From an uncultured Candidatus Saccharibacteria bacterium (lineage in GTDB: Bacteria; Patescibacteriota; Andersenbacteria; UBA10190): 64,000 bases of DNA. The DNA lies in assembly GCA_964562905.1 (NCBI GenBank), contig CAZLVG010000001.1, positions 2,297 through 66,296 of the forward strand, given 5' to 3'. The notes beneath the pieces are model-generated. The model was not told the origin of the DNA and made no database searches. It saw nothing but the letters and a program-made list of their open reading frames with translations. Below are positions 1,040 through 62,506 of this stretch, piece by piece. The position numbers and the translations under genes were made by a program. Every line of letters begins with the position of its first letter. Positions within the stretch are counted from its first letter, which is position 1.

Positions 1040-1082
1040 GAAACACCAGCCCACCCGCCTACCATGGCTTGCGGGTGCAGGT

Positions 1083-1195
1083 ATAGCTATCACATTACGC
1101 CATGCCGCTCTGCAAATAAACGGGTGGCGCGGGCGGGGGGTGCGGGGCCGCGATAAGGACGCGCTAATAAGCATAGCGGCCTTGCAAATGTTGCC
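1083..1195. mobile_element. MITE-like repeat, copy 1 (intact left TIR, degenerate right TIR)
   Basis: It shares atagctatcacattacgccatgccgctct plus aaataaacgggtggcgcg and a GC-rich core with the elements at 6659, 53539 and 60541. It lies in the convergent intergenic spacer between topA and parB. Confidence 0.6.
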
Positions 1196-1232
1196 TCTAT
1201 ATTATCTCCGCTTTTTTTAATTACCCGGCCCT

Positions 1233-3415: not shown

Positions 3416-3573
3416 GGCTACGAAGAGAAGGAATTTGCCGCTATATTAATCAGCATACTGCTATTATTGTAATATAACTGCCGGCTTTTACACAACAACC
3501 CTTTCAGTAAGCGCTTTTCCACAAGAAGGACAGCTACAAAGCTTGGCAACTATTCCTATCTCCTTGCGATCAG

Positions 3574-3610
3574 TAATTCGTAACTCGTAACTCGTAATTC
3601 GTAATTCGTA
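3574..3610. repeat. Tandem heptamer array (TCGTAAT/TCGTAAC) x ~5.5
   Basis: Direct reading shows gtaattcgtaactcgtaactcgtaattcgtaattcgtaa. Its reverse complement matches motifs at 39961 and 60723. Confidence 0.8.
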
Positions 3611-3632
3611 AAAAAAACTTCCTTGATTTTCC

Positions 3633-3858
3633 CCTCCCTTGATCATTACTATCTACACATCTTATGACTATGTTGAGCCACTACAGCCATATTGAGGTAA
3701 ATCGGTTAATCCAGATGTTTTAAGAACGCTTAATTAAGGCAAGATTACATACGCCTTGTTTAAGCGAATAACGTTTCTCTGCTCTATAATTGGCCTAACA
3801 GTAGCTTTGTTATGCCTCCTAATAGACTTGTGTAGATAGTAATGCCCTTGATGGGGGA
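3633..3858. repeat. AT-rich spacer bounded by a 16-bp inverted repeat (candidate replication origin or regulatory region)
   Basis: cattactatctacaca (3644-3659) pairs with tgtgtagatagtaatg (3829-3844). Each arm is flanked by a direct cccttgat. The intervening ~165 bp are markedly AT-rich relative to the window. Confidence 0.4.
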
Positions 3859-3944
3859 ATTTAAGGGGAGAAAATTAGGGAGCAGTTATCCGGTATTTCC
3901 TTGCTAGTTAGCTCTTTTAATGTAAGCTATCATACTTGCATGCG

Positions 3945-6658: not shown

Positions 6659-6787
6659 ATAGCTATCACATTACGCCATGCCGCTCTATACGCGTGACGG
6701 GTCCTTATCGCGGCCCTGCGCCCCCACGCCGCGGTGCAGTGGCTCCGGGGCGCGGGGGACCCCGCGCGCCGCGCCACCCGTTTATTT
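6659..6787. mobile_element. MITE-like repeat, copy 2 (single TIR, inverted relative to copy 1)
   Basis: It begins atagctatcacattacgccatgccgctct and ends gcgccacccgtttattt, which is the reverse complement of aaataaacgggtggcgc in copies 1 and 3. The core is GC-rich and palindromic. It lies in the convergent spacer between ugd and the nucleotidyltransferase. Confidence 0.55.
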
Positions 6788-6844
6788 ATTGTTATCCGCC
6801 TTCGCCGGCTGGCGAACGGCAAAGTCAAAGATTTAACCGCTAAA

Positions 6845-12434: not shown

Positions 12435-14871
12435 TATTGTTCACCACAAAATTTATCATGCGCCCTTCCACATAAATAACTTTTGCCAGCTTCCCTTTCT
12501 CCAAATATTTCCTGACGTTAGCCAGCTGTTCTGCCCGCCGCTGAAGTAGCTGGCGGGAATCGCCCGCGGCCGCCTTAACCTCTCCCCTCACCCGGCCGTT
12601 AACCTGCACCGGCAAACTCACCTCCGTGGCCGCCAGCTTGTCCTCGTCATACTCCGGCCAATCGGCCCGGCTAACAGAAGGCTTATGGCCTGCCTTTTCC
12701 CACAGCTCCTCCGCCAAATGCGGGGCAAAGGGGGATAAAAGGATAATAAATGTCTCCCAGGTCCGGCGGGCCACCACCGGCTGCTCTTCCAGTTCGTTCA
12801 ACATCTCCATCATAGCCGCCACGGCCGTATTGAACTTTAGCCTGTCAATCCCCTCTGTCACCCGTTTGACCGTCCGCTGAAGCGCCAGGTCTACTTCTGC
12901 CGGCACGTCATTTTTGTCGGCAACTCTTTCCCCTACTTGCCAGACACGGTCAAAGAATCTCCTCACCCCTCTAACGCCGGCAGTATTCCACTCCACCGCC
13001 TTCTCAAAGGGACCTATAAACATCTCGTACGTCCGCAGCGTATCGGCGCCAAACTGCTGTGCCACTTCATCCGGATTGATCACGTTGCCCCGCGATTTTG
13101 ACATCTTAACGCCTGCCTTCCCCAGCACCATGCCGTGCGAGGTGCGCTTGGTATAAGGTTCACTGCTTGGCACCAAGCGCAAATCGTACAAAAACTTATG
13201 CCAAAATCTGGAATACAGTAAATGTAAAGTGGTGTGCTCCATGCCGCCATTGTAAAGATCCACCGGCATCCAATACGCCATAAGCTTCCCGCCGGCCAAC
13301 TCCTGGTCATTGCGGGGGTCGGTATACCGCAGGTAATACCAGGACGACCCAGCCCAGTTAGGCATGGTGTCGGTTTCCCGCCGGCCCTTTCCTCCGCAGG
13401 TTGGGCATGAGGCGTTAACCCACTCGGCCACGTTGGCCAAAGGAGAGCGGCCGGTATCAGTTGGTTCGTACCGCTCAACTTTAGGCAGCTCCACCGGTAA
13501 ATCTTCCTCGGGAACGGGAACTTCACCACATTCGTTGCAATAAATGATAGGAATCGGCTCGCCCCAATAGTGCTGCCGGGAAAACACCCAGTCCCTTAAA
13601 CGATAGGTAACTGCCCTCTTCCCCCTGCCCCTCTCCTCCAAATAATCCATGACCTTCTCTTTGGCTTCACTAGTCTTAAGACCATTCAAAAATCCTGAAT
13701 TAACCATTCGGCCCTCGCCCTCTTCCACCTGCTCTGTCTTGGTTATGGGCAAATCGTCGCCGCCTGGTCCGACCACCACGCGTTTTATCGGAAGTCCTAC
13801 GGCCTGGGCGAAGTCAAAATCCCGCCTGTCGTGCCCGGGCACCCCGACTACGGCCCCCGTACCCACATAAGCCAGGACAAAATCTGCTACCCAGATGAGC
13901 ATTTTCTCGCCCGTCAGGGTGTTCTTGGCTGAATATCCGGTGAACACGCCCGTCTTTCTTCCGCCTTCCTCCTGTCTCTCCAGTTCGGACTTGCGCAAAG
14001 CCGCTTTGACGTATTCAGTTATCTTGTCCCTGTTTTCCGAAGGTAGCTCCCCTTTGATTATCTTCTTTACCCAATCATGCTCCGGCGCCAACACCACAAA
14101 AGTGGCGCCGAAATTAGTGTCCGGCCTGGTGGTAAAACAGGTAATGCCGCGTCCAGTCCCGCCGACTTCGTACGTTATTTCCATTCCCTCGCTGCGGCCG
14201 ATCCAGTTTTTTTGTTGCTCTTTCACCCGCCGGGGGAAGTCCACTTCTTCCAATCCCGCCAGCAATTTATCCGCGTAAGCCGTAATGCGCAGCATCCATT
14301 GCTCCATCTCGCGTCTCTCAACTCGGCCTTCACATCTTTCGCACGCACCGCCTGCCACCTCTTCGTTCGCCAGTCCAATTTTGCAGGATGGGCACCAGTT
14401 AATAGGAGCTTTCTGCTTGTAGGCCAGCCCGTTTTTATATAACTGCAGGAAAATCCACTGTGTCCATCGGTAATAACCAGGATCCGTGGTATTTATTTCC
14501 CGAGTCCAGTCAAAAGAAAAACCCAATGATTTCAGCTGTTTCCGGAAGGTGTCGGTATTTCTCCGAGTCGCCTGGGCGGGATGGATGCCGGTCTTAATAG
14601 CGTAATTTTCCGTGGGGAGACCAAAAGCGTCCCAGCCCATGGGGAATAAAACATTGTAGCCTTCCATGCGGCTCTTTCTGGCTACTACGTCCAGCGCCGT
14701 ATAACCGCGACAATGCCCGACGTGCAGACCGTCACCGGAAGGATAGGGAAATTCCACCAGAATATATTTTTTAGGCTTGCTAGAAAAATCTTCGGCTGTA
14801 AAGATCCCCCTTTCCTCCCAGTACCTCTGCCATTTTTTTTTGATTATTTTTGGATCGTACCTCGCGGACAT
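12394..14871 (-). CDS. leuS: Leucyl-tRNA synthetase
   Basis: N-terminus KKWQRYWEERGIF, HIGH motif PYPSGDGLHVGHCRGY, and KMSKS motif VKMSKSRGN. Length is 825 aa. Confidence 0.95.
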   Translation of the reverse strand: MSARYDPKIIKKKWQRYWEERGIFTAEDFSSKPKKYILVEFPYPSGDGLHVGHCRGYTALDVVARKSRMEGYNVLFPMGWDAFGLPTENYAIKTGIHPAQATRRNTDTFRKQLKSLGFSFDWTREINTTDPGYYRWTQWIFLQLYKNGLAYKQKAPINWCPSCKIGLANEEVAGGACERCEGRVERREMEQWMLRITAYADKLLAGLEEVDFPRRVKEQQKNWIGRSEGMEITYEVGGTGRGITCFTTRPDTNFGATFVVLAPEHDWVKKIIKGELPSENRDKITEYVKAALRKSELERQEEGGRKTGVFTGYSAKNTLTGEKMLIWVADFVLAYVGTGAVVGVPGHDRRDFDFAQAVGLPIKRVVVGPGGDDLPITKTEQVEEGEGRMVNSGFLNGLKTSEAKEKVMDYLEERGRGKRAVTYRLRDWVFSRQHYWGEPIPIIYCNECGEVPVPEEDLPVELPKVERYEPTDTGRSPLANVAEWVNASCPTCGGKGRRETDTMPNWAGSSWYYLRYTDPRNDQELAGGKLMAYWMPVDLYNGGMEHTTLHLLYSRFWHKFLYDLRLVPSSEPYTKRTSHGMVLGKAGVKMSKSRGNVINPDEVAQQFGADTLRTYEMFIGPFEKAVEWNTAGVRGVRRFFDRVWQVGERVADKNDVPAEVDLALQRTVKRVTEGIDRLKFNTAVAAMMEMLNELEEQPVVARRTWETFIILLSPFAPHLAEELWEKAGHKPSVSRADWPEYDEDKLAATEVSLPVQVNGRVRGEVKAAAGDSRQLLQRRAEQLANVRKYLEKGKLAKVIYVEGRMINFVVNNNDERTSAETEGQP

Positions 14872-37990: not shown

Positions 37991-38458
37991 GTGAGGGAGC
38001 ACAATAGAAACATGCCCACCCTGGCTTACAACCGCCGGGCTAAATTTGACTACCACCTCCTGGAAACACTGGAGGGAGGGCTGGCGCTGCTCGGCACTGA
38101 AGTAAAATCGGCTAAAGCCGGCAATCTAAGCCTGCGCGGAGCTTTCGTGACCATACACCATAATGAAGCTTACCTTACCAACGCCACCATACCGCCCTGG
38201 CAGGTAAAAAATACGCCCCGCGGCTACGATCCCGCCCGCCCGCGCAAAGTACTGTTGAAAAGAAGTGAGCTTAAGCACCTTATCGGCAGTAAACAATCAA
38301 AAGGCTTGACAGTTATCCCTATAAGCGTTTATACTAAAGGACCGCGCGTAAAGCTTGAACTGGCACTGGCCCGGGGAAAAAAGAAGCATGACCGCAAACT
38401 GGAGAAAAAGGAAAGAGACATCCGGCGCGAGGTGGCCAGAACGTTGCGCGGAAAATAG
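37991..38458 (+). CDS. smpB: SsrA-binding protein
   Basis: Motif NRRAKFDYHLLETLEGGLALLGTEVKS. Length 155 aa. It lies immediately upstream of the tmRNA. Confidence 0.95.
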   Translation: MREHNRNMPTLAYNRRAKFDYHLLETLEGGLALLGTEVKSAKAGNLSLRGAFVTIHHNEAYLTNATIPPWQVKNTPRGYDPARPRKVLLKRSELKHLIGSKQSKGLTVIPISVYTKGPRVKLELALARGKKKHDRKLEKKERDIRREVARTLRGK

Positions 38459-38859
38459 GGGCGCGTTATGGCCTCGACGGGTTGTTGTTTACCCAATCTG
38501 CGTGCTGTGTGCTGTGAGCCGCTCACATAAATAAAAGGGTTCACCAAAGTTCAAGTGCGAACTTATTTAAGCGGGTGAAGACGGCTTTGGCCCCTTCATT
38601 TGCTACCGCTGCCGCTTAAACACCGGCAGCCATCGCCTCGCTCCTGCCGCCGGGCGCGAGCAGCGGTGCCAGATCAGGCGGATAGGGCGGTTTGGTTTGA
38701 GAGACAAGCTGCCTGACTTAAAGCACATTCTCCTCACGTGCGCCTGAAGTCTTTGCCGGTCTGTTGCTGCCCGCGTACGTAAAACTGCCAGACCGGCTAC
38801 GCGCGTAGATGATTGCGTATCCACATCCCGCACGCGAGTTCAACTCTCGCCGCGTCCAC
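38459..38859 (+). ncRNA. ssrA: tmRNA (ssrA)
   Basis: The 5' end GGGCGCGTTATGGCCTCGACGGG matches the tmRNA 5' consensus. The 3' tRNA-like end has T-arm GCGAG-TTCAACT-CTCGC. Acceptor 3' strand CGCGTCC pairs with 5' GGGCGCG, including the G3:U70 alanine identity pair. Discriminator A is followed by CC. An internal reading frame ends ...FATAAA-TAA, resembling a proteolysis tag. Confidence 0.85.
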
Positions 38860-39416
38860 CGACCTTCGCTCTCCATCTTTGGCGGAGGGTGCCGTCCACA
38901 GCCTCCGAGCTTTAGCAAGGAGCGACGGACGGCTGCAATAATTGCATGCGGCAATATGTTTATGTATTGCGGAATAACAGAAAAGATCAGCAAACAGATA
39001 GCCTGAATAAAAGGCTGCAGCAACATAACCAAGGTGCGTTCCAGCAACAACAGATAGTAGGCCTTGGTACGTCCATTGGTTCTGCGGATTCAGAACAAAG
39101 AAGGAAGCGCTAATCTTCGAAAAATATCTTAGGGGCGGTTCAGGCGCCATGTTCAGGTATAGGCATTTAGCGCCAAAACAGTAACCCCTAGGCTTCGCTT
39201 TCCGTAAGCCAGCGGCTAGTTTTGACAAATCCAGCCCTAAGCCGAATGAAGCTTAAGATGAACGATAACATAACGGAGATACTGGCATTTCCTGGAAAAG
39301 GAGAGTTTTTTCGCTTTGCCTCCCGGTCGGCTTTCCACAGCCTCCCGGCCGGCAGCGCGCGAGATTTTTCAAGCCCGCGACTATAATACCCAGGACATTT
39401 AAGTTACGGTTACTGT

Positions 39417-39917: not shown

Positions 39918-39960
39918 GGGACGCAACCGCGCCTGCACTTCCGCCCCGCCAATACAAATC

Positions 39961-39990
39961 ACGAGTTGCGAATTACGGATTACGAACCAC
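39961..39990. repeat. Dispersed ACGAGTT(A/G)CGAATTACG motif copy (upstream of infC)
   Basis: acgagttgcgaattacggattacgaacc matches the heptad arrays at 3574 and 60723. Confidence 0.6.
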
Positions 39991-41320: not shown

Positions 41321-43645
41321 ATGAGCAAAATATTAGTAACCGGCGGAGCAGGATTTCTGGGCAGCCATCTGTGCGACCGGCTAGTACAACGCGGAGATGA
41401 AGTCATATGTGTGGACAACTTTTTCACCGGCCAGAAAAGAAACATCACCCACCTGCTGAAAAACCCTTTGTTCGAGCTTATACGCCACGACATCGTGGAG
41501 CCACTGGCGGTGGAAGTAGACCAGATTTACAACCTGGCCTGTCCGGCCTCGCCGGTACATTACCAGCACAACCCCATCAAAACCATAAAAACTTCCACGG
41601 TGGGCATGGTTAACATGCTGGGGCTGGCCAAGCGCGTGGGAGCTCGGCTGCTGCAGACATCCACCTCGGAAGTTTACGGAAATCCCGCTGTCCACCCCCA
41701 GCCTGAAACGTATTGGGGGAACGTCAATCCTATAGGAACCCGCTCCTGTTACGATGAAGGCAAGCGCGTAGCCGAAACCCTGTGCATGGATTACCACCGG
41801 CAGAACCATGTTGATATTCGCATTGCCCGGATTTTCAATAGCATCTTAGCCAATGAAACAGTCTTACTATTCAACAACAAGCACATTCACACAGAGTCAA
41901 TAGAAAAATACGTCGATTCTCACCTAGCCTCGCGCCTGGATCCGAACCCGCCACGCGTACTGATCCCCACGTTTGATCCCAGATCATGCCGAACCCGCTT
42001 AGCAGAGGCAAGCGCAGTCACCAAACACCGATGCAGAACCGATTGTTATGAACTCTCACTCCGCTACGGCAGAAACGTCAAAGTCACTGGAGATCACAGC
42101 GTGTTCACCCGAGGACAAAACGGAAGGCCCACGGCAATACCAGTACGCCAGCTGAGTGTTGGTGATTACGTAGCCATCCCGGCAAAGCTGCCGGTAGTCG
42201 AGCAAAACCGCCAACGCGTAGAGCTTGGTGAAGCCCTGCTCCGGTCACTACCAGATACCGAATTATGGGACTACGCAGTACGTGCTACAACTCTTCAAAA
42301 AGTCATTACAGAACGGCGAAACGAAATCATAAAAATTATAGAAAAAAGCAGGCGATTTAACGCCGAACGGCAGCGCAATGCTTACACATGCGCCTACAAT
42401 AAATACCGACGAAGATCACTCCTGCCACTCTATGTGCTCAAACGTCTCCGCATTTCAGTACCCAAAGAAGGCAAAATTCGCGTGTACAAATCCGGCGCAC
42501 ACATCTGGCTTCCCGCCACCATCAATGTCACACCCGATCTACTGTGGTTGATCGGCCTTTTCATCGCGGAAGGAACATCTCACTTCCAGAAAGGAAAGAG
42601 CGCGTTTATATCCCTCTGCTCCGACGAGCACCTACTCAAACGAGCACAAAAAATTCTTGAAGCGCTTGGTTGCCATGTTGTGTATCGTCCTGCCTATGAT
42701 AATAAGGGACCGTCTATCTTTGCGCACTCAAAACTTCTGTACTTTCTGTTTGACCACGTCCTAGACATCTTACCCGACAAGCAGTTCCCAGCCTGGATTA
42801 TGCAACTACCACTCTCAAAAATAAAGCACGTCCTAGAAGGATACCGCGAGGGAGACGGCACGCACAGTGGTAAAAAAATAGGCAGCGAACTCTGTTTCAA
42901 CACTACGAGCAAAAACCTGGCAGACCAGTTAACCTATACCCTTCTACGCTTTGGCATTGTCGCTTCAGTTGGCAAGTACAACACTACCTTCAGAAAGCGC
43001 TATGAGAACCGGCGGTTCCCATTTTATAGAATAACTATTTGTGCGCTAGACAATTTCGATATACTCAGTTGGGACAGCAAAGTTCAACAAACCCTCAACG
43101 CCAAAAGAACTGGCGATATCGTGTGGTCAAAAATCAGAAGCATTAAACCAGTCGCCAGATCAGCCTACGTGTACGATTTCACCGTCCCAGGCTCTGAAAA
43201 TTTTATTGCCGGCAATGGGATATTTTGCCACAACACCTACGGTCCCCGTATGCACCCGGCAGACGGCCGCGTCGTCAGTAATTTCATCATGCAAGCTCTG
43301 GAGGAAGCGCCCCTCACGGTTTACGGAGACGGCAGCCACACCCGCTCTTTTTGTTACGTGGATGACATGGTAGAGGCTCTTACAAGGCTCATGGATCAAG
43401 AAAAGGAGACGGGGCCGGTTAATCTGGGTAACCCCGAAGAAACTTCCATGCGGGAGCTGGCCCGCCTAATCATAAAATTGACTCGCAGCCGCTCTCCCAT
43501 CTCCCGTCATCCCCTGCCGGCCGACGATCCCCAAAAACGGCGCCCCGACATAACGAAAGCCGGACAAATTATTAACTGGCGGCCGGGCACTTCCCTAAAG
43601 GCGGGTTTGCAAAAAACTATTGCTTACTTTAAGAGCTTGCCGTAA
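41321..43645 (+). CDS. UDP-glucuronate decarboxylase / UDP-xylose synthase-like extended SDR, interrupted by an in-frame intein (host protein ~309 aa + 465-aa intein)
   Basis: N-extein: [19 protein letters not shown]...YDEGKRVAE...RIARIFN. C-extein: [49 protein letters not shown]. The two exteins are contiguous in UXS/RmlB-like homologs (ARIFNTYGPRM). Confidence 0.85.
41840..43234 (+). mobile_element. Intein with LAGLIDADG homing-endonuclease domain, inserted in the UXS-like gene
   Basis: Block [11 protein letters not shown] (Ser1), block [12 protein letters not shown], two LAGLIDADG motifs ([11 protein letters not shown] and [11 protein letters not shown]), C-terminal blocks [22 protein letters not shown], and +1 Thr. 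The insertion point lies within the conserved RIFN|TYGPR substrate-binding motif. Confidence 0.85.
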
Positions 43646-52086: not shown

Positions 52087-53547
52087 TTACCGCCACGTGG
52101 AAAACCAGAACAGTTTTTCGTACAAATCATGCGGTAAAAAGAAGCCGTACGTTAAGGGACTGAACACTAAAAACATAGCCGCCGCCGCTCCCAGCAGTAC
52201 ATAATAATAGGGGGGCTGCTTCATCAAGCTCCCTTTTCTGAAAAACCCGGTTCCGTCCAACCAGAGCAGACCCGCCAGTAAAGCGAACAAAAGAGGCGTA
52301 AGGTAATGATAAAGAAACAGCGCCCGCGGTACGCGCGCCAAAGGTACATAAGAGATAATATAACCGGCCAGCGGAATGAAAACGGCTTTATTATAGCCGT
52401 CAGAACCTAACCTTTTCAGAGATTCCAATTTATAAGCCGCGAAAAAATCTCTTATTTGTTTACTCCGCCTGTACAGGAATGAATAACACATGCCAAGCAG
52501 TGAAATAATCAACAGAGCGCCTATGCTCCACCAGACAACCAGATTACCCAGAAAATAAATGGAGGCTACGCGGCCTTCACCGCCGCTTTGCGTCCAGTAA
52601 AAAACGGGGGTGCCGACATACGGCCAACTCCACCAGCGACTGGCATCCGGATGGGTAGCTTCAAGGTTGTAGTTAGCGTCAAACATGATCCGATGTAATT
52701 CTATCGTTTCTTTGACAAAAGTTACGGGCAGCCAACCTTCGTCCCACTGCGGTACCCGCCAGGCATCTCCCGGTCCGGACTGTGTGAGCAAAGCAAAATG
52801 CAGCGCCCAGCCTGCCCCGTAGACAGTCAGGCCGCTGGCCGCGATTAGCAGAGCAACTGCCAGATAACGAGCTAACATCTTGTAAGATGAGACATTAAGC
52901 ACGCGCCAGGCCAGTATTACCGCCAGCACACCCGCGGCCACCAAGCCGGTAAACTTCGCGCCTACGGCCAGTCCGGCCAAGGCTCCTGCCGCGCACGCGC
53001 GCCACGCCCATCTCTGCCAGTGAAAAGGACTTTTCCTGAATGATTTTTCCATCCCCAAGTAGGCGCTTAGACAACCAAAAACAGCTACCAGCAGCACGCC
53101 GTCCAGGGATATTACGCGATTTTGCACGGTCAGAGCGTTATCAAATATAACCATCATGCTCCCTAAAAAAGCTGCCGCCTGTCCGGCTCCCAACTGTCTT
53201 AACAATATAAAAATCACGAGCGGCAGCAACATTCCCATAAGCGCCGGTACGGCCCGCAGTCCGATAGGAGACACAGCACCGTACCTCTGCCCTATATTGG
53301 AAAACGACAAGTCTCCCTCATAACCAGCCAGTTTAGCGGCGCCCGCCACCAGCAGCTTGGCGTGGGGCGGATGGATATCAAAAAATCTCTCTCCCGTACA
53401 GCAGTAGGCCGTAACGAACTTTCCAAAATGAACCTCGTCAAAAACCACTTGCCGCGGATAGCTTAGCCACATAAATTGAGTGGCCGCGGCCAGCGCGAGG
53501 ATAACCAACAATAATTTGAACCGCTGCGACATAAGTACAGATATCAC
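52087..53547 (-). CDS. Protein O-mannosyltransferase family (GT39/PMT) GT-C glycosyltransferase
   Basis: Strong PMT signature VFDEVHFGKFVTAYCCTGERFFDIHPPHAKLL (loop-1 DE motif). About 11 TM helices. Confidence 0.8.
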   Translation of the reverse strand: MISVLMSQRFKLLLVILALAAATQFMWLSYPRQVVFDEVHFGKFVTAYCCTGERFFDIHPPHAKLLVAGAAKLAGYEGDLSFSNIGQRYGAVSPIGLRAVPALMGMLLPLVIFILLRQLGAGQAAAFLGSMMVIFDNALTVQNRVISLDGVLLVAVFGCLSAYLGMEKSFRKSPFHWQRWAWRACAAGALAGLAVGAKFTGLVAAGVLAVILAWRVLNVSSYKMLARYLAVALLIAASGLTVYGAGWALHFALLTQSGPGDAWRVPQWDEGWLPVTFVKETIELHRIMFDANYNLEATHPDASRWWSWPYVGTPVFYWTQSGGEGRVASIYFLGNLVVWWSIGALLIISLLGMCYSFLYRRSKQIRDFFAAYKLESLKRLGSDGYNKAVFIPLAGYIISYVPLARVPRALFLYHYLTPLLFALLAGLLWLDGTGFFRKGSLMKQPPYYYVLLGAAAAMFLVFSPLTYGFFLPHDLYEKLFWFSTWR

Positions 53548-53655
53548 ATTATGCCATGCCGCTCTTCAAAATAAACGGGTGGCGCGGGGTGGAGGGTGCA
53601 GGGCCGTGCCAGGGCCCGTTATAAGTATAGCGGCATGGCATAATGTTACCTCTGT
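53539..53655. mobile_element. MITE-like repeat, copy 3 (complete, both TIRs)
   Basis: The perfect TIR tcacattatgccatgccgct ... agcggcatggcataatgt is embedded in longer imperfect terminal similarity (agatatcacattatgcc... / ...ggcataatgttacctctgt). The element is near-identical to the reverse complement of the 60541-60656 copy. Confidence 0.75.
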
Positions 53656-53821
53656 AGATGTTTATTTTATGCGACAGTATTATTTTCCTCCACTGTCGTC
53701 AACGGCCATGTCTGTGCTCTGCGCTAATTAATCTAACTACGTCAAGCGCTAGCCGCTGGCTGTCCGGGCTAGACCGTCGGTACCGGCTGGCAACCGCCGC
53801 CGTAACGACCGCCGGCTGAAA

Positions 53822-55639
53822 TCAAGGCGAGGGCGAAGGGCTGGGAGAGGGCGAAGGGCTGGGAGAGGTGTCATCGTCAACTATAATTACCCCGGCCGGC
53901 GGGCCTAAAGACACGCTGTGGGCGTGGCTAAAGGCGCGGGCCAACGCCGCCGCGAAGTCTTCGTCCCCCTCCACCTGATCGTCGCCCTCCACCGCCGCCG
54001 GCACCGTTTGACTTAAGGAACCGCCCGGTTCAAAGGTGAGCGTGATGTCACTGCCGCTGTAATCGCCATCCGACCGCGCGGCCGACCCGTCCTGAAATTC
54101 CAGCCGGACGGTCAACGTATCATCCACCGATGACGACAAAGACACCTTAAAAGCAATCGGCGTGCTGTCGGAGGCATCCCCTTCAGTCACCGGCAGCGGG
54201 TTGGACAATACTACGTCAGGATCGGCTGGGTCCACGTTCTGAACGGTCACCGCTACCGGAGAGAGAACTTCTTCCGCCGCGCAAGTGCCGGCCGGACCCT
54301 GGCAGCTGCCGCCGACCACGCTGCAGCCGGAGGGACCTTCAGCGACCACTTGAGTCTCGCAGCCGCTCTCCCATCCCCCCCAGTACCAGCTGCAGCCGGC
54401 GTCATCGGCGCAAATAGTGCGGCAGGTGCCGCCAGCGCCGCACATTTCACCCGCGGGACAGTCAGTGTCCTGTGAGCAAGCCGCGTCGCTTGATGATACA
54501 TGGCACTCTTCACCGTTAGCGCACCAGCTCCTGTCCGAATCCACCAGCGGGTCGGGTTCCGGACACGCCATCGGGCCACATTCCAGTCCGGGGCAGGCCC
54601 CGCCGGCGTCATATCCCCCCCGGCAGGAAGCCGACGCGCCTCCGCCGGACGCCGCCCGGCAATCAGGCGTCCACGTGGTCCGGCACTGGCTGACTACCCG
54701 CCAGCGGCCGCAGCCAGTAAAGGTGCCGGAATCTATATATTGGCAGTCAGTAACACAGCTGCCCGGGCAGTCCAGCGAGGTGGCACAGCTGTCCTGTTCG
54801 CAAAACATAGCAGTATCGTCGGCCGGTCCTCCTTCGTCATAGGAAGCGAAAGTAAGCTCGTACCAGTCATTTTCGTAACAGTAACCGTTAAAACAGGCGC
54901 TGCCGGCCGGACAAGTCCAGTCCGGACAGCTAGCCGTGGGGCAAGTACCGCTAAGCGGGCACAGCGCTCCCGTACCGCACCACGTACCGGGCCGGCAAGA
55001 CTCCCCTTGGACCGGCAAATCCGGCGCCGTCACTCCGCAAAAGCCGGTCAGGGGGCACAGCTGCCCGTCGTCGCACAGCAGGCCCGGCGTGCAAGCGGTA
55101 CCCGAAGTCGGCGGCCCCGGTCCCGGCGGAGGGTCGCACACCCCCGTGGAAACGTCGCAATCGCGCCCGTCGGGACATGAAACACAGGAGGCGGGCCGTC
55201 TTTTCTCCGTCACGTAAGTTACGGTCCGCACGTCACGCGCCTCTCCTCCGGCTGTGGTCCAGGCCACTTCTATCTCAACCTTTTTAAAATCCTCCGCTTC
55301 ATCAGCAGTCAGCGGGTCATCCACATAGGCAATACTGGTTGTCATCTGATACTGTTCATTATCCCGGCTAACCGTCTGCGGAGCCGCGTCTATCACTCCC
55401 TCCGGCTCTGCCGGGTCCGGGGACGTATAGCCCACGTCGCTGTAAGGCAAGGAGTCGATGTACCCTTTCTGCTCGTTCAAAATGGACAGCGCCGACAACT
55501 GGCGCTCCGCTCCGGTAAGCAGGCGCGTAGTCAGAACGGAAAGTCCCAGCACACTGACGCTCACAAACCCGATAATAAAGACTGACACCAACACGCCGAC
55601 AAGGCTCTGTCCTCTACAAACTTCCCCTGTGTCCTTCAT
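53822..55639 (-). CDS. Cys-rich cell-surface protein with C-terminal Calx-beta domain and (SP)n tail; pilus-associated adhesin candidate
   Basis: N-terminal hydrophobic anchor. About 60 Cys in repeated CxxGxxC modules. Calx-beta motif DYSGSDITLTFEPGGSLSQTVPAAVEGDDQVEGDEDF. The C-terminus is SPSPSPSPSPSP. It is co-oriented directly upstream of the PMT gene. Confidence 0.6.
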   Translation of the reverse strand: MKDTGEVCRGQSLVGVLVSVFIIGFVSVSVLGLSVLTTRLLTGAERQLSALSILNEQKGYIDSLPYSDVGYTSPDPAEPEGVIDAAPQTVSRDNEQYQMTTSIAYVDDPLTADEAEDFKKVEIEVAWTTAGGEARDVRTVTYVTEKRRPASCVSCPDGRDCDVSTGVCDPPPGPGPPTSGTACTPGLLCDDGQLCPLTGFCGVTAPDLPVQGESCRPGTWCGTGALCPLSGTCPTASCPDWTCPAGSACFNGYCYENDWYELTFASYDEGGPADDTAMFCEQDSCATSLDCPGSCVTDCQYIDSGTFTGCGRWRVVSQCRTTWTPDCRAASGGGASASCRGGYDAGGACPGLECGPMACPEPDPLVDSDRSWCANGEECHVSSSDAACSQDTDCPAGEMCGAGGTCRTICADDAGCSWYWGGWESGCETQVVAEGPSGCSVVGGSCQGPAGTCAAEEVLSPVAVTVQNVDPADPDVVLSNPLPVTEGDASDSTPIAFKVSLSSSVDDTLTVRLEFQDGSAARSDGDYSGSDITLTFEPGGSLSQTVPAAVEGDDQVEGDEDFAAALARAFSHAHSVSLGPPAGVIIVDDDTSPSPSPSPSPSPSP

Positions 55640-59309: not shown

Positions 59310-60516
59310 TGACCAGGTTGTAGATGGGTGAAATAACGGATACCGCCAGCGCTCCCACCGCCAGACCTATGAGCACCATCAGAATGGGCTCCATAATGGA
59401 AGTCAGGTTCTTCATGGTCTGGTCAACTTCACCTTCATAAAACTGCGCCGTCTCTTTCAATACTTGGTCCAACGCGCCCGTCTCTTCTCCTACCCTTATT
59501 ATATTAACGACAATCGGAGGAAACAGACGGCCGAAACCTTCCAGAAATTCACTTAATTCCTTGCCTCCCTTTACGTGCTCGCGCGCCTGCGCCAGCACGC
59601 GCGCGTAGCTAGGGTGGGGAGTGTTGGATCCCAGAATATCCAGAGCCTTAATGTAAGACACGCCGCTGGACAGCAGCGCGCCCAAGTTACGAGAAAAACG
59701 GGCTAAGTTTATCTCTTGCATGATAGGGCCAATCACCGGCGTATAGAGCAGCCCGTGCATGACAGCGGCCTTAACAGACTGCAGACGCAAAAGACCCCAG
59801 GCCGCGGCCACCAGAACAAACGCGCCTACGAAGAAAAGCAGCCAGTGAGCTTGAAAAGCGTCGCTGATGGCTATCAATATCCTGGTGGGCAGCGGCAGCT
59901 CCACGTCAAAACCTTCAAAGACCTCCACCAGCTTGGGCACCACGAAGAACATCATGGCCACCCCTACGGCAATAAGGGACAAAATAATCACTATGGGATA
60001 CATAAGGCCTCCCTTGACCGCCCGGCCCAGCTCATATTCTTTATGCAGCTGCTCCGCCAATACTTCTAAAGATTCTTGCAGCCGGCCGGTCGTCTCCCCT
60101 ACTCGCACAAAACTGACAAACAGCGGCGGAAACACATTAGGGAAAACCGACATCCCCTCGGCCAGCGTTTTGCCGCGGTCTATGTCACTGTGTAATGACT
60201 TCAAAGCCGTTCTCATGGCCCTACTACGGGTTTGCTCCTGTAAGGTCACCAGCGATCTTTTGACATCCAAGCCAGAACGCAACATGAGCGCGAAGTAGCG
60301 GGCGAACAGCGCGCGCTCCAGGGAGGATGCCCGGTTAAATAAGCCGGAAAAAACAGCCGCTCCCGGCAGCCGCTGTGCCTTTCTGCTGTAACTTGTCAGC
60401 AGTATACCCTCGCCTAACAGGTTCTGTCCCAAAACGGAGTGGTCGGGCGCCTCGCGCATCCCCCGCACTATCTCACCCGTCTTCTCCCGCCGTCCTTCAA
60501 AGGAATATATAGGCAT
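59299..60516 (-). CDS. pilC: Type IV pilus inner-membrane platform protein PilC (GspF family)
   Basis: Two GspF repeats, each with 3 TM. Motifs LEQ.G...AL..M.YP..I. Confidence 0.9.
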   Translation of the reverse strand: MPIYSFEGRREKTGEIVRGMREAPDHSVLGQNLLGEGILLTSYSRKAQRLPGAAVFSGLFNRASSLERALFARYFALMLRSGLDVKRSLVTLQEQTRSRAMRTALKSLHSDIDRGKTLAEGMSVFPNVFPPLFVSFVRVGETTGRLQESLEVLAEQLHKEYELGRAVKGGLMYPIVIILSLIAVGVAMMFFVVPKLVEVFEGFDVELPLPTRILIAISDAFQAHWLLFFVGAFVLVAAAWGLLRLQSVKAAVMHGLLYTPVIGPIMQEINLARFSRNLGALLSSGVSYIKALDILGSNTPHPSYARVLAQAREHVKGGKELSEFLEGFGRLFPPIVVNIIRVGEETGALDQVLKETAQFYEGEVDQTMKNLTSIMEPILMVLIGLAVGALAVSVISPIYNLVNVI

Positions 60517-60540
60517 CCCGGCAACAATTAATGCTAATAT

Positions 60541-60656
60541 ACAGAGGTAACATTATGCCATGCCACTATACTTGTGACGGGCTCTGGCGCGGCCCATGCA
60601 CCCCCGCGCCGCGCCACCCGTTTATTTAAAGAGTGGCATGGCATAATGTGATATCT
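60541..60656. mobile_element. MITE-like repeat, copy 4 (complete, both TIRs; inverted relative to copy 3)
   Basis: acagaggtaacattatgccatgcc...ggcatggcataatgtgatatct. It is about 90% identical to the reverse complement of copy 3, including the GC-rich core and the aaataaacgggtggcgc box. Confidence 0.75.
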
Positions 60657-60722
60657 ATAACTCACAGGTTTAAGTATAAATAATTATCCCTCCACCGACC
60701 AACCTCACCTCGCCCACACTAG

Positions 60723-60752
60723 CTACGAATTACGAGTTACGAATTACTGATT
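60723..60752. repeat. Dispersed heptad motif copy ACGAATTACGAGTTACGAATTACTG
   Basis: Near-identical to the reverse complement of 3574-3610, including the flanking attactgat. It lies immediately downstream of the pilB stop. Confidence 0.7.
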
Positions 60753-60760
60753 ACAAAACC

Positions 60761-62506
60761 TCATTCCCTGGCTACGCGCAACACTTCTTCTAAGCTGGTT
60801 ACTCCGCTGGCCACTTTCATAAAACCGTCCTCCACCATGCTTACCATGTTCTGTCCTTTGCGCGCCGCCTCTTCCAGCTGTCCAGAAGTAGTCTGCGGCT
60901 TTATTATCTGCTGCATTTCGGACGTTATTTCCATAACCTCGTAAATACCGATTCGCCCCTTGTAGCCGTCGTGACACCGCTGGCAGCCGCCCGCTTCGCC
61001 CGTCTTATAAAGCGGCATCTCCGTCCAGTCGGCATTGCTTTCAACTACTCCTTCCTTTCGTAAAACATTCAATACGCTGTCCATGTCAAACTCGTCCTGC
61101 AAATCTTTAACCAAAGCCGGCGTGAACTTCGACCGCCGCCGGCACTTGTCGCACAACCGTCTCACCAGGCGCTGGGCCAGAACTAGGTTTAAGGTGGAAG
61201 CCAGCAGAAAAGCTTCCACTTTCATGTCCCGCAACCGCGGCAAAGCGCCGGCCGCGCTGTTAGTGTGCAGCGTAGACAGCACTAGGTGCCCCGTCAGCGC
61301 CGCGTTAACGGCCAGCGAAGCCGTCTCCTCGTCCCGGATCTCACCTACCATAATAATGTCCGGGTCCTGCCGTACCAGCGACCGCAGGCCGTTGGCAAAC
61401 GTAAGCCCGATGCGGGAACGCACCTGGGTCTGATTAATGCGGGGCATACGGTATTCTATCGGGTCTTCAATAGTGCTGATGTTCACTTCCGAAGTGTTTA
61501 CCTCCTTCATAACCGCGTACAGCGTGGTGGTTTTGCCGGAACCGGTAGGACCTGTGACCAGTATCATACCGTGCGGGTGGTGAATGGCCTGGCGCAGTAC
61601 CTTTAACTGTTTTTTGTTTATTCCCAGGTCATCCAATCCCAGCCCCTGCCCTGATTCGTCCAACAGGCGCATTACTATTTTTTCACCGTCATAGACCGGC
61701 AGGGTGGACACGCGGAAGGCCACTTTGTAATTGTCGGACTCTATTTTAAAACGGCCGTCCTGCGGCAAACGGTGTTCATCAATTTTCAAATTAGCCAGCA
61801 CCTTCACCCTGGCCACCAGGCCGGGCAACACCGTCTTAGGCAGTATCAGCATATCCCGCAGAATCCCGTCTATACGGTAGCGAACGATAACTTTCTTCTC
61901 GGCGGGCTCTATGTGAATATCCGAGGCGCCTTCCAGAATGGCGTGCTTCAAAATTGCCTGGGCGATACGTATAACCGGCAGGTCGTCAGCCGATTCAACT
62001 TGCTCCCCCTGCTCCACTACATTTTTAAGTTCTTCGCCGACTACGTCTGAAAGCTCCGCCTTCAAGCTCTCTTGGTATTGGTTCAGCACGTTCTGTATGG
62101 AGGCAACGCTGGCCTGAGCCACCTCCACGGGCATGTCCACCTTTTTGCGCAAGAACTCCACCATTTGCCGATCGCTGGGGCTGGCCATGGCCACCCGCAG
62201 CCCTTTATCCGTCTGCTCGTAAGCTATGATCATGTGGCCGCGCGCCGTGGATTCAGGAAGAACGTTAAGCACTTCCCGCGGAACTCTCTTATCTCTCAAA
62301 TCAACGTAAGGCACCTGCGCCGCCTCCGCCTGAACTTTGGCCAAGTCTTCGCCGTCCACCAGGCCGCTGTCCACTAAAGCAGCCTGCCAGCCGGCACCGG
62401 CCTCCAGCTGCCGCTTTATCTCCTCCAGCTCTACCTCTTTCTTGAACAAATCTCTGCTAGCCAGCGTTTGCAGGATATTACCAATGGCGACAGTATCCTC
62501 TACCAT
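60761..62506 (-). CDS. pilB: Type IV pilus assembly ATPase PilB (GspE family)
   Basis: Walker A motif LVTGPTGSGKTTTLYA, Asp/His boxes, and tetracysteine CDKC...CQRC. An N-terminal GSPII_E_N domain is present. Confidence 0.95.
   Translation of the reverse strand: MVEDTVAIGNILQTLASRDLFKKEVELEEIKRQLEAGAGWQAALVDSGLVDGEDLAKVQAEAAQVPYVDLRDKRVPREVLNVLPESTARGHMIIAYEQTDKGLRVAMASPSDRQMVEFLRKKVDMPVEVAQASVASIQNVLNQYQESLKAELSDVVGEELKNVVEQGEQVESADDLPVIRIAQAILKHAILEGASDIHIEPAEKKVIVRYRIDGILRDMLILPKTVLPGLVARVKVLANLKIDEHRLPQDGRFKIESDNYKVAFRVSTLPVYDGEKIVMRLLDESGQGLGLDDLGINKKQLKVLRQAIHHPHGMILVTGPTGSGKTTTLYAVMKEVNTSEVNISTIEDPIEYRMPRINQTQVRSRIGLTFANGLRSLVRQDPDIIMVGEIRDEETASLAVNAALTGHLVLSTLHTNSAAGALPRLRDMKVEAFLLASTLNLVLAQRLVRRLCDKCRRRSKFTPALVKDLQDEFDMDSVLNVLRKEGVVESNADWTEMPLYKTGEAGGCQRCHDGYKGRIGIYEVMEITSEMQQIIKPQTTSGQLEEAARKGQNMVSMVEDGFMKVASGVTSLEEVLRVARE

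Follow-up and report, generated by a model that had tools for sequence, protein, structure and literature searches.

A 64-kb stretch of contig CAZLVG010000001.1 (hereafter the window, meaning the whole 64,000 nucleotides analysed) holds four copies of a short inverted-repeat unit. We read these copies, with a probability of about three in four, as a non-autonomous, TA-flanked family of miniature inverted-repeat transposable elements (MITEs) of Candidatus Andersenbacteria, similar in kind to RUP or Correia elements. The family looks previously undescribed, and otherwise like an ordinary bacterial MITE rather than a new kind of element. Judging from its PilC homologues, the host is a Candidatus Andersenbacteria bacterium of the Candidate Phyla Radiation (CPR, or Patescibacteria), and its closest non-self PilC relative is only 79% identical. 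CPR genomes are small and densely packed, and their mobile DNA is little known. Our literature search turned up no report of MITEs in CPR bacteria, nor any paper with these sequences.

Bacterial MITEs are shorter than 200 bp and non-coding, have terminal inverted repeats (TIRs) and 5'-TA-3' termini, are accompanied by a target-site duplication, and can form a long stem-loop (PMC2229807). An earlier reading of the bare letters of the window (the original prediction) had called the repeats MITE-like. That description stands: the units are small and non-coding, carry TIRs, are dispersed with sharp TA ends among unrelated flanks, are missing from orthologous sites in relatives, and recur in independent assemblies.

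The repeat unit and its copies in the window

A profile built from seven full copies and run with nhmmer finds exactly four family members in the window and no others. The original prediction had also counted four, and all of its sequences lie at the places it gave. The copies and their landmarks are listed below; the unit coordinates of A, C and D include the flanking TA.

53536-53656, plus strand: copy C, intact; element of 117 nt (53538-53654), with TA at 53536-53537 and 53655-53656
60540-60659, minus strand: copy D, intact; TA-flanked element of 116 nt (60542-60657), inverted relative to C
1082-1201, plus strand: copy A, full length with both ends present, decayed
6660-6789, minus strand: copy B, truncated and rearranged; a single L-type TIR at 6660-6685, second TIR missing
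53546-53563, plus strand: left TIR core of C, ACATTATGCCATGCCGCT; its reverse complement TGGCATAAT faces outward and is extended -10-like
53629-53646, minus strand: right TIR core of C, perfect complement of 53546-53563
60550-60567, plus strand: TIR core of D at its R end, ACATTATGCCATGCCACT
60632-60649, minus strand: TIR core of D at its L end, perfect complement of 60550-60567
53569-53585, plus strand: subterminal box AAATAAACGGGTGGCGC in C; in the other copies at 1114-1130 (plus), 6771-6787 (minus) and 60611-60627 (minus)
53574-53620, no strand: GC-rich core hairpin of C, ACGGGTGGCGCGG...CCGTGCC...CCCGT, taken from the predicted fold

Copies C and D lie on opposite strands and are 92% identical over 119 gap-free columns, close to the 90% first estimated. 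A repeat search of the window recovers them as an inverted pair, with 85% identity over 91 nt and 91% over 35 nt, and copy A is about 85% identical to either. The perfect TIRs of 17-18 bp claimed for C and D measure 18 nt (ACATTATGCCATGCCRCT), and over 28 nt the arms are still complementary at 89% (C) and 86% (D). Both arms of D have an A where both arms of C have a G.

The two remaining copies had been described as degenerate, one of them with a single TIR. This holds for B, whose core is inverted relative to its one TIR end and contains about 34 nt of additional internal insertion. The boundaries had to be corrected, and A proves to have both ends, the right one (agcggccttgcaaatgt) decayed by mismatches and a 1-nt deletion and reading CGTAAT instead of CATAAT in the TIR.

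These matches are well above what chance provides. The TIR core ATTAYGCCATGCCRCT has six exact sites in the window, all within the four copies; with three mismatches allowed, shuffled sequences average 1.9 sites, and not one of 100 shuffles has as many as seven. The box AAATAAACGGGTGGCGC, first seen in C and D, is exact in all four copies against an expectation of 0.25. Its opposite strand reads GCGCCACCCGTTTATTT, a stem end followed by a U-run.

Alignment of the seven full copies, three from the window and four from elsewhere, reveals a common layout: TA, YAG-AYATCAC-ATTATGCCATGCCRCT, CTT, AAATAAACG(C)GGGYGRCG, a variable GC-rich core, AGYGGCATGGCATAAT-GTKACYTC.., and TA. The left TIR ends in ATTATGCCATGCCRCT, the box is represented by AAATAAACGGGTGGCG, and the right TIR starts with AGYGGCATGGCATAAT; the TIR end motif of the family is TAYAGAYATCACATTATGCCATGCCRCT. 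TA is present on both sides in 7/7 full copies, and the similarity between copies ends exactly there. The unit comes in a short form of 116-117 nt, found in the window, and in long forms of 168-192 nt, which occur in other lineages and have an additional internal segment. Translated frames through the units (116-192 nt) are short or interrupted by stops, marking them as non-coding, and a protein-database search with these frames returned no matches.

Folding, which had been suggested as a check, predicts that the whole unit is one long hairpin closed by the TIR stem. Copies C and D each give a single such hairpin with fold z-scores of -6 to -9, and the long forms reach -6 to -8. Pairing is between the two arms and not within either of them, since neither is an imperfect palindrome on its own. 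Across the seven copies 83% of the TIR stem cells are paired, and four pair positions are altered on both arms. A copy from a metagenome locus (L043) has unmatched arms, with a GCC variant on one and a GAA variant on the other; as it mixes two TIR variants, pairing of the stem is not strictly kept. Neither the length nor the pairing of the core stem is conserved, the core spanning about 45 to about 130 nt across the forms, and the best-conserved portions of the element are its termini.

The cores of the long forms (L034 1100-1190; L056/L108) contain a motif CCTGAGCCTGTCGAAGGACGAAGCC, partly duplicated in L034, together with a palindrome GCCTGCCTGCCGGCAGGCAGGC. These may represent a small GC-rich repeat nested within the MITE.

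Relatives, element-free sites and age of the family

Looking for copies in related metagenomes was another check proposed at the outset, and it found them at different loci in two other Andersenbacteria lineages. A metagenome scan for the exact 18-mer TIR gave 39 loci, among which only L034, L043 and L056 are real relatives. By PheS homology L056 also belongs to Andersenbacteria, and a longer ENA contig of the same organism, L108, carries two 192-nt copies, one between pheS and pheT (L108b) and the other in the leader of a membrane-protein/pheS operon (L108a). A third lineage (GCA_001001305.1, loci L091-L096) has a 168-nt copy between divergent genes, with the variant CACATTATGAAATGCCAC in both arms. 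This brings the family to at least five copies beyond the four in the window.

Its distribution is patchy, with members in three Andersenbacteria lineages and none in about 100 kb of other relatives. The copies form a decay series from intact (C, D) to decayed (A) and truncated (B, L034), and they recur in JGI, ENA and NCBI assemblies from different samples. That several Andersenbacteria lineages have a MITE family in common implies that a transposase is, or was until recently, active, and that organisms regarded as highly reduced engage in some genetic exchange or keep a conserved master element.

Beyond these lineages the searches were negative. When 185,579 species genomes were scanned for the exact 18-mer TIR, there were 33 single matches in unrelated taxa, which are due to chance or lie in coding sequence, none of them with the box. 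Scans of viral sequences gave five chance matches to the box and none to the TIR, while the GAAAT variant of the TIR led to phage iterons, judged to be chance as well; blastn against GenBank phages and PLSDB plasmids found no match to the element. The iterons are a small observation in their own right: loci L102-L107 (IMG/VR; for example L102 11300-11360) have three 15-nt iterons CCACAT(TA/GG)TGAAAT(G/A) by operator-like palindromes TGACA..TGTCA. One iteron junction happens to form the exact 18-mer of the GAAAT variant, which we judge a coincidence.

The hairpin evidently causes mis-assembly in metagenome-assembled genomes (MAGs). At one locus several independent assemblies are faulty where the element lies: L092 is collapsed to TIR-NN-TIR at 14650-14690, L091 (14650-14748) is without the right half, and L096 (7128-7290) ends in a fold-back. 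Knowing the family therefore aids MAG curation, as its hairpin breaks or collapses metagenome assemblies.

What do the insertion sites look like? The window is compact, as had been noted from its letters: it has 56 open reading frames (ORFs) in a CPR genome, with spacers mostly below 100 bp, and the four copies occupy four of the largest spacers. Their intergenic placement, claimed for all four, is borne out by the ORF map. Copies A and B both occupy spacers between convergent 3' ends: those of topA and a parB-like gene in the case of A, and those of a UDP-glucose dehydrogenase gene and a nucleotidyltransferase gene in the case of B. Copy C separates the gene of a Calx-beta protein from that of a PMT-family glycosyltransferase; its L end is on the side of the PMT gene, and 3 nt separate the flanking TA from the likely ATG of that gene (53532-53530, minus strand). 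Copy D is situated between pilB (T2SSE; stop at 60761) and pilC (T2SSF; start at 60516), 23 nt upstream of the pilC ATG and 13 nt downstream of a -10-like hexamer TTATACT.

Comparisons between species show several of these junctions without the element. The pilB-pilC spacer is 9 bp long and element-free in L078 (PilC 76% identical) and L089 (79%), and the Calx-beta-PMT spacer of L078 is element-free with 3 bp. L080 and L083 have a pilB-pilC spacer of about 110 bp, with a -10 box of the TATACT type and no element. No family member was found anywhere in the fetched DNA of L078, L089, L080 and L083. The pheS-pheT spacer measures 44-54 bp in relatives versus about 215 bp in L056/L108, where it holds L108b. 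Upstream of copy L108a, at a distance of 17 nt, is a -10 box, TTTGTTACAAT, whose position is conserved in relatives, and subtracting the element and one TA leaves a leader of 49 nt compared to 45 nt in relatives. By these sequence comparisons the element is inserted relative to relatives at four loci: pilB-pilC, Calx-beta-PMT, pheS-pheT and the membrane-protein leader. The idea that the element replaces a native promoter in L056 was rejected, as L108 keeps its native -10 box upstream of the insertion.

A different insertion of about 95 bp, also MITE-like, sits on the pilC start codon of L090 (214-308; Logan SRR22388308; PilC 77% identical to that of the window). Its TIR is CAGTAACAA(C/T)TACTTC, and TATGCCC is directly repeated on both sides, so that the ATG is regenerated. 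Together with copy D this means that at least two unrelated miniature elements have struck the pilB-pilC junction in Andersenbacteria.

How old is the family? The neutral-site comparison was made between the L108 and L091 lineages, because no orthologous genes are common to the window and the fetched loci. Their PheS proteins are 79% identical, and the four-fold degenerate sites of pheS are 35% identical, that is, saturated. Non-orthologous element copies of the same two lineages are 84-86% identical; window copies are up to 89% identical to L095, and the cross-lineage range overall is 84-89%. Since this identity is far above that of saturated host sites, the family must either be constrained or, owing to activity or transfer, be much younger than the split of the lineages.

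Mechanism, transcription signals and rival explanations

In the mechanism that we propose, a transposase encoded elsewhere in the genome would recognise the TIRs, probably together with the subterminal box. The unit would be cut and pasted into TA dinucleotides of AT-rich spacers, and the TA would be duplicated. The termini TA-YAG...CTR-TA suggest an enzyme of the IS630/Tc1-mariner type, as proposed for RUP. Once inserted, the unit would be transcribed as a long hairpin within a 5' untranslated region or between cistrons and, with low confidence, may serve as a small regulatory cassette. The TA duplication, the transposase class and any expression effect are what we infer, because neither a parent insertion sequence (IS) or transposase nor a clean filled/empty junction was found. 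The GAAATGTC variant of the TIR may resemble the inverted terminal repeat of mariner Mos1, a likeness that is not used as evidence.

Some points weigh against a mobile element. Among the 56 window ORFs there is no transposase, integrase, resolvase, recombinase or Y1 domain, and no longer element with the same TIRs appeared in the genome, metagenome and viral scans, which required the exact 18-mer; the cognate full-length IS that was to be looked for according to the original prediction is thus found neither in the window nor in these collections. The TA could belong to the element instead of being a target-site duplication, and the spacers that hold C and D carry other extra sequence too. The paired changes at four positions of the TIR arms and the conservation across lineages equally fit selection on a hairpin function. 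Finally, the window copies diverge by 8-15% and two of the four are decayed, which speaks against a very recent burst. The suggested recent or ongoing mobilisation is weakened by this, and is favoured insofar as the family is far younger or more constrained than neutral host sites.

Known repeat families offer close parallels. RUP from Streptococcus pneumoniae, 107 bp long with a TA target and attributed to IS630-Spn1, is of similar size (107 vs 116 bp), non-coding and intergenic, with TIRs, TA and a long stem-loop, and is presumed to be mobilised in trans (PMC2229807). It differs in that its TIRs match those of IS630-Spn1 and that it has about 100 genomic copies; the Andersenbacteria family, at a density of 4 per 64 kb, has no parent IS found, longer TIRs (18-28 nt), no sequence similarity to RUP and a CPR host. 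The Correia elements (NEMIS, CREE) of Neisseria are likewise TA-flanked with long TIRs (about 24-26 bp) and insert by gene starts and inside operons. They form two size classes differing by an internal segment, 107/155 bp (PMC2229807), which compares with 116/168-192 nt here.

Correia elements are able to generate promoters at one or both of their ends and give rise to substrates of RNase III (PMC2229807; PMC2649163). By analogy, such promoter behaviour is what the outward TGGCATAAT motifs would predict for the present family. The two share no sequence similarity, and the functions in promoter activity, IHF binding and RNase III processing, which have been demonstrated for Correia elements, are putative here. 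ERIC (IRU) elements share the format of extragenic imperfect palindromes of about 127 bp with TA termini that are transcribed as stem-loops (PMC2229807). They have 7-bp TIRs and often occupy orthologous sites, in contrast to the long TIRs and the presence/absence between relatives observed here. REP and REPIN-RAYT systems are also extragenic hairpin-forming repeats at gene 3' ends, but REP units are individually palindromic and RAYT-associated, neither of which is seen in the window.

Could the element do more than move? The outward TGGCATAAT on each TIR resembles native extended -10 boxes, namely TGCTATACT in the window and TGTTACAAT and TGGTATACT in related loci. On the minus strand of C the core hairpin is followed by UUUAUUUU, and the fold places UUUAUUU(U) on the strand complementary to the box; modelled in this way, the core hairpin looks like a one-way intrinsic terminator. 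In A, B and C, though not in D, the terminator-like direction is towards the upstream gene. Consensus promoter and terminator scans called nothing at any copy, the terminator scan because the stem is bulged and the loop long. As the essential genes pheS and pheT are directly downstream of the two L108 copies, the element must permit or provide transcription there.

A more far-reaching version, which we regard as tentative and rather doubtful, is a mobile transcription cassette with an outward extended -10 promoter in each TIR and a one-way core terminator, in which purifying selection keeps the copies 84-89% identical. If this were true, cassette insertions would split or re-wire tightly packed operons (pilB/pilC, Calx-beta/PMT, pheS/pheT), and purifying selection on the cassette functions, not recent transposition alone, would explain the cross-lineage identity in the face of saturated neutral sites. 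Copies in the pilus operon and ahead of pheS/pheT could alter the expression of the attachment and DNA-uptake machinery of episymbionts. The family would be of greater interest if the regulatory reading is correct.

The same signals might also be explained without any transposase, by a selected cis-regulatory hairpin module (a terminator, a promoter, or an mRNA-processing or stabilising stem-loop) that spread by recombination or originated repeatedly and was conserved for its function. Such a module would account for the location of every copy at a gene end or in a 5' leader, for the hairpin and UUUAUUU facing the upstream gene in three copies, for the native -10-like motifs on both TIRs, for a conservation far above that of neutral sites, and for the essential genes next to the L108 copies. 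However, simple promoter and terminator scans call nothing at the copies, the hairpin of D is turned towards pilB in its non-terminating orientation, antisense transcription is all that A and B would drive, and the same junctions work in relatives with element-free spacers of 3-9 bp. Sharp TA-bounded ends and truncated copies are, moreover, features of transposition. A module of this type is compatible with an exapted MITE and hence no true alternative; as an explanation by itself we consider it improbable. The alternative of small structured RNA genes, with a hairpin RNA made from every copy, was offered in the original prediction and appears highly unlikely. It could draw on the very stable predicted folds, on the four stem positions that co-change on both arms and on a TATACT hexamer at the R end of C and D that points into the core. 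Yet Rfam 15 yields only tmRNA and tRNA at the gathering threshold, with no match at E <= 10 around C and none at E <= 1 in L056, L043 and L034. The core ranges widely in length, the base of its stem is not conserved, the termini are the best-kept part, the TIR variants of L043 do not match between arms, and the copies occur in both orientations relative to their neighbours. An internal TATACT promoter for a core RNA was rejected because the hexamer is confined to C and D and is not in A, B or the long forms.

The REP-like alternative, also raised at the start, takes the form of a REPIN-like doublet mobilised by a RAYT, a Y1 transposase of the IS200/IS605 type. A multi-copy extragenic hairpin of about 116 nt made of two inverted arms would suit it, but single arms are not imperfect palindromes, TA stands on both sides where REPINs have a one-sided target motif, and no Y1_Tnp domain, and so no RAYT gene, is found among the window ORFs, which leaves it a very faint prospect. 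Barely plausible is an invertible promoter switch, in which a site-specific recombinase flips the segment between inverted repeats. It would fit copy B, whose core, in comparison with A, is inverted with respect to the L-type end, and the copies upstream of surface-structure genes (pilC, the PMT glycosyltransferase, the membrane protein). No recombinase is encoded in the window, however, and with the -10-like motif inside the repeats a flip of the core would not switch it. The L095 locus, assembled independently five times, and the L056/L108 locus, assembled twice, each show a single orientation; A and B are bordered by convergent 3' ends, and relatives have empty sites. Practically untenable, lastly, is a segmental duplication or an assembly artefact, even though assemblers stumble at the hairpin and the L092, L091 and L096 contigs collapse or break there. 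The original prediction had named confinement to this region, duplicated flanks or an artefact as outcomes that would speak against it; instead, the flanks of all copies are unrelated, by which segmental duplication was rejected, and the occurrence of the same element in independent assemblies from JGI, ENA and NCBI and from different samples argues that it is no artefact of assembly.

Other repeats and genes in the window

Apart from the MITE family, the window contains further repeats. A perfect 18-nt tandem repeat (GAGGGCGAAGGGCTGGGA x2.2) is found at 53829-53868, at the 3' end of the Calx-beta gene and just upstream of copy C. Three spacers (3573-3611, 60724-60747 and about 39960-39990) hold tandem repeats of a heptamer, (GTAATTC)n; two of the sets are reverse complements of each other, and one adjoins copy D. 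The largest spacer of the window, from parA to tRNA-Leu, has a 42-nt inverted repeat (3618-3659 / 3829-3870; 71% complementary) around an AT-rich segment of about 170 bp, which may be a second MITE-like unit.

Two genes carry inteins. At 41321-43645 a gene for an NAD-dependent epimerase/dehydratase is split by an intein with a LAGLIDADG homing-endonuclease domain, and gyrB of the related locus L091 (17153-20581) is likewise intein-bearing. The smpB gene (37991-38458) directly abuts the tmRNA gene (38459-38861), an unusually tight arrangement.

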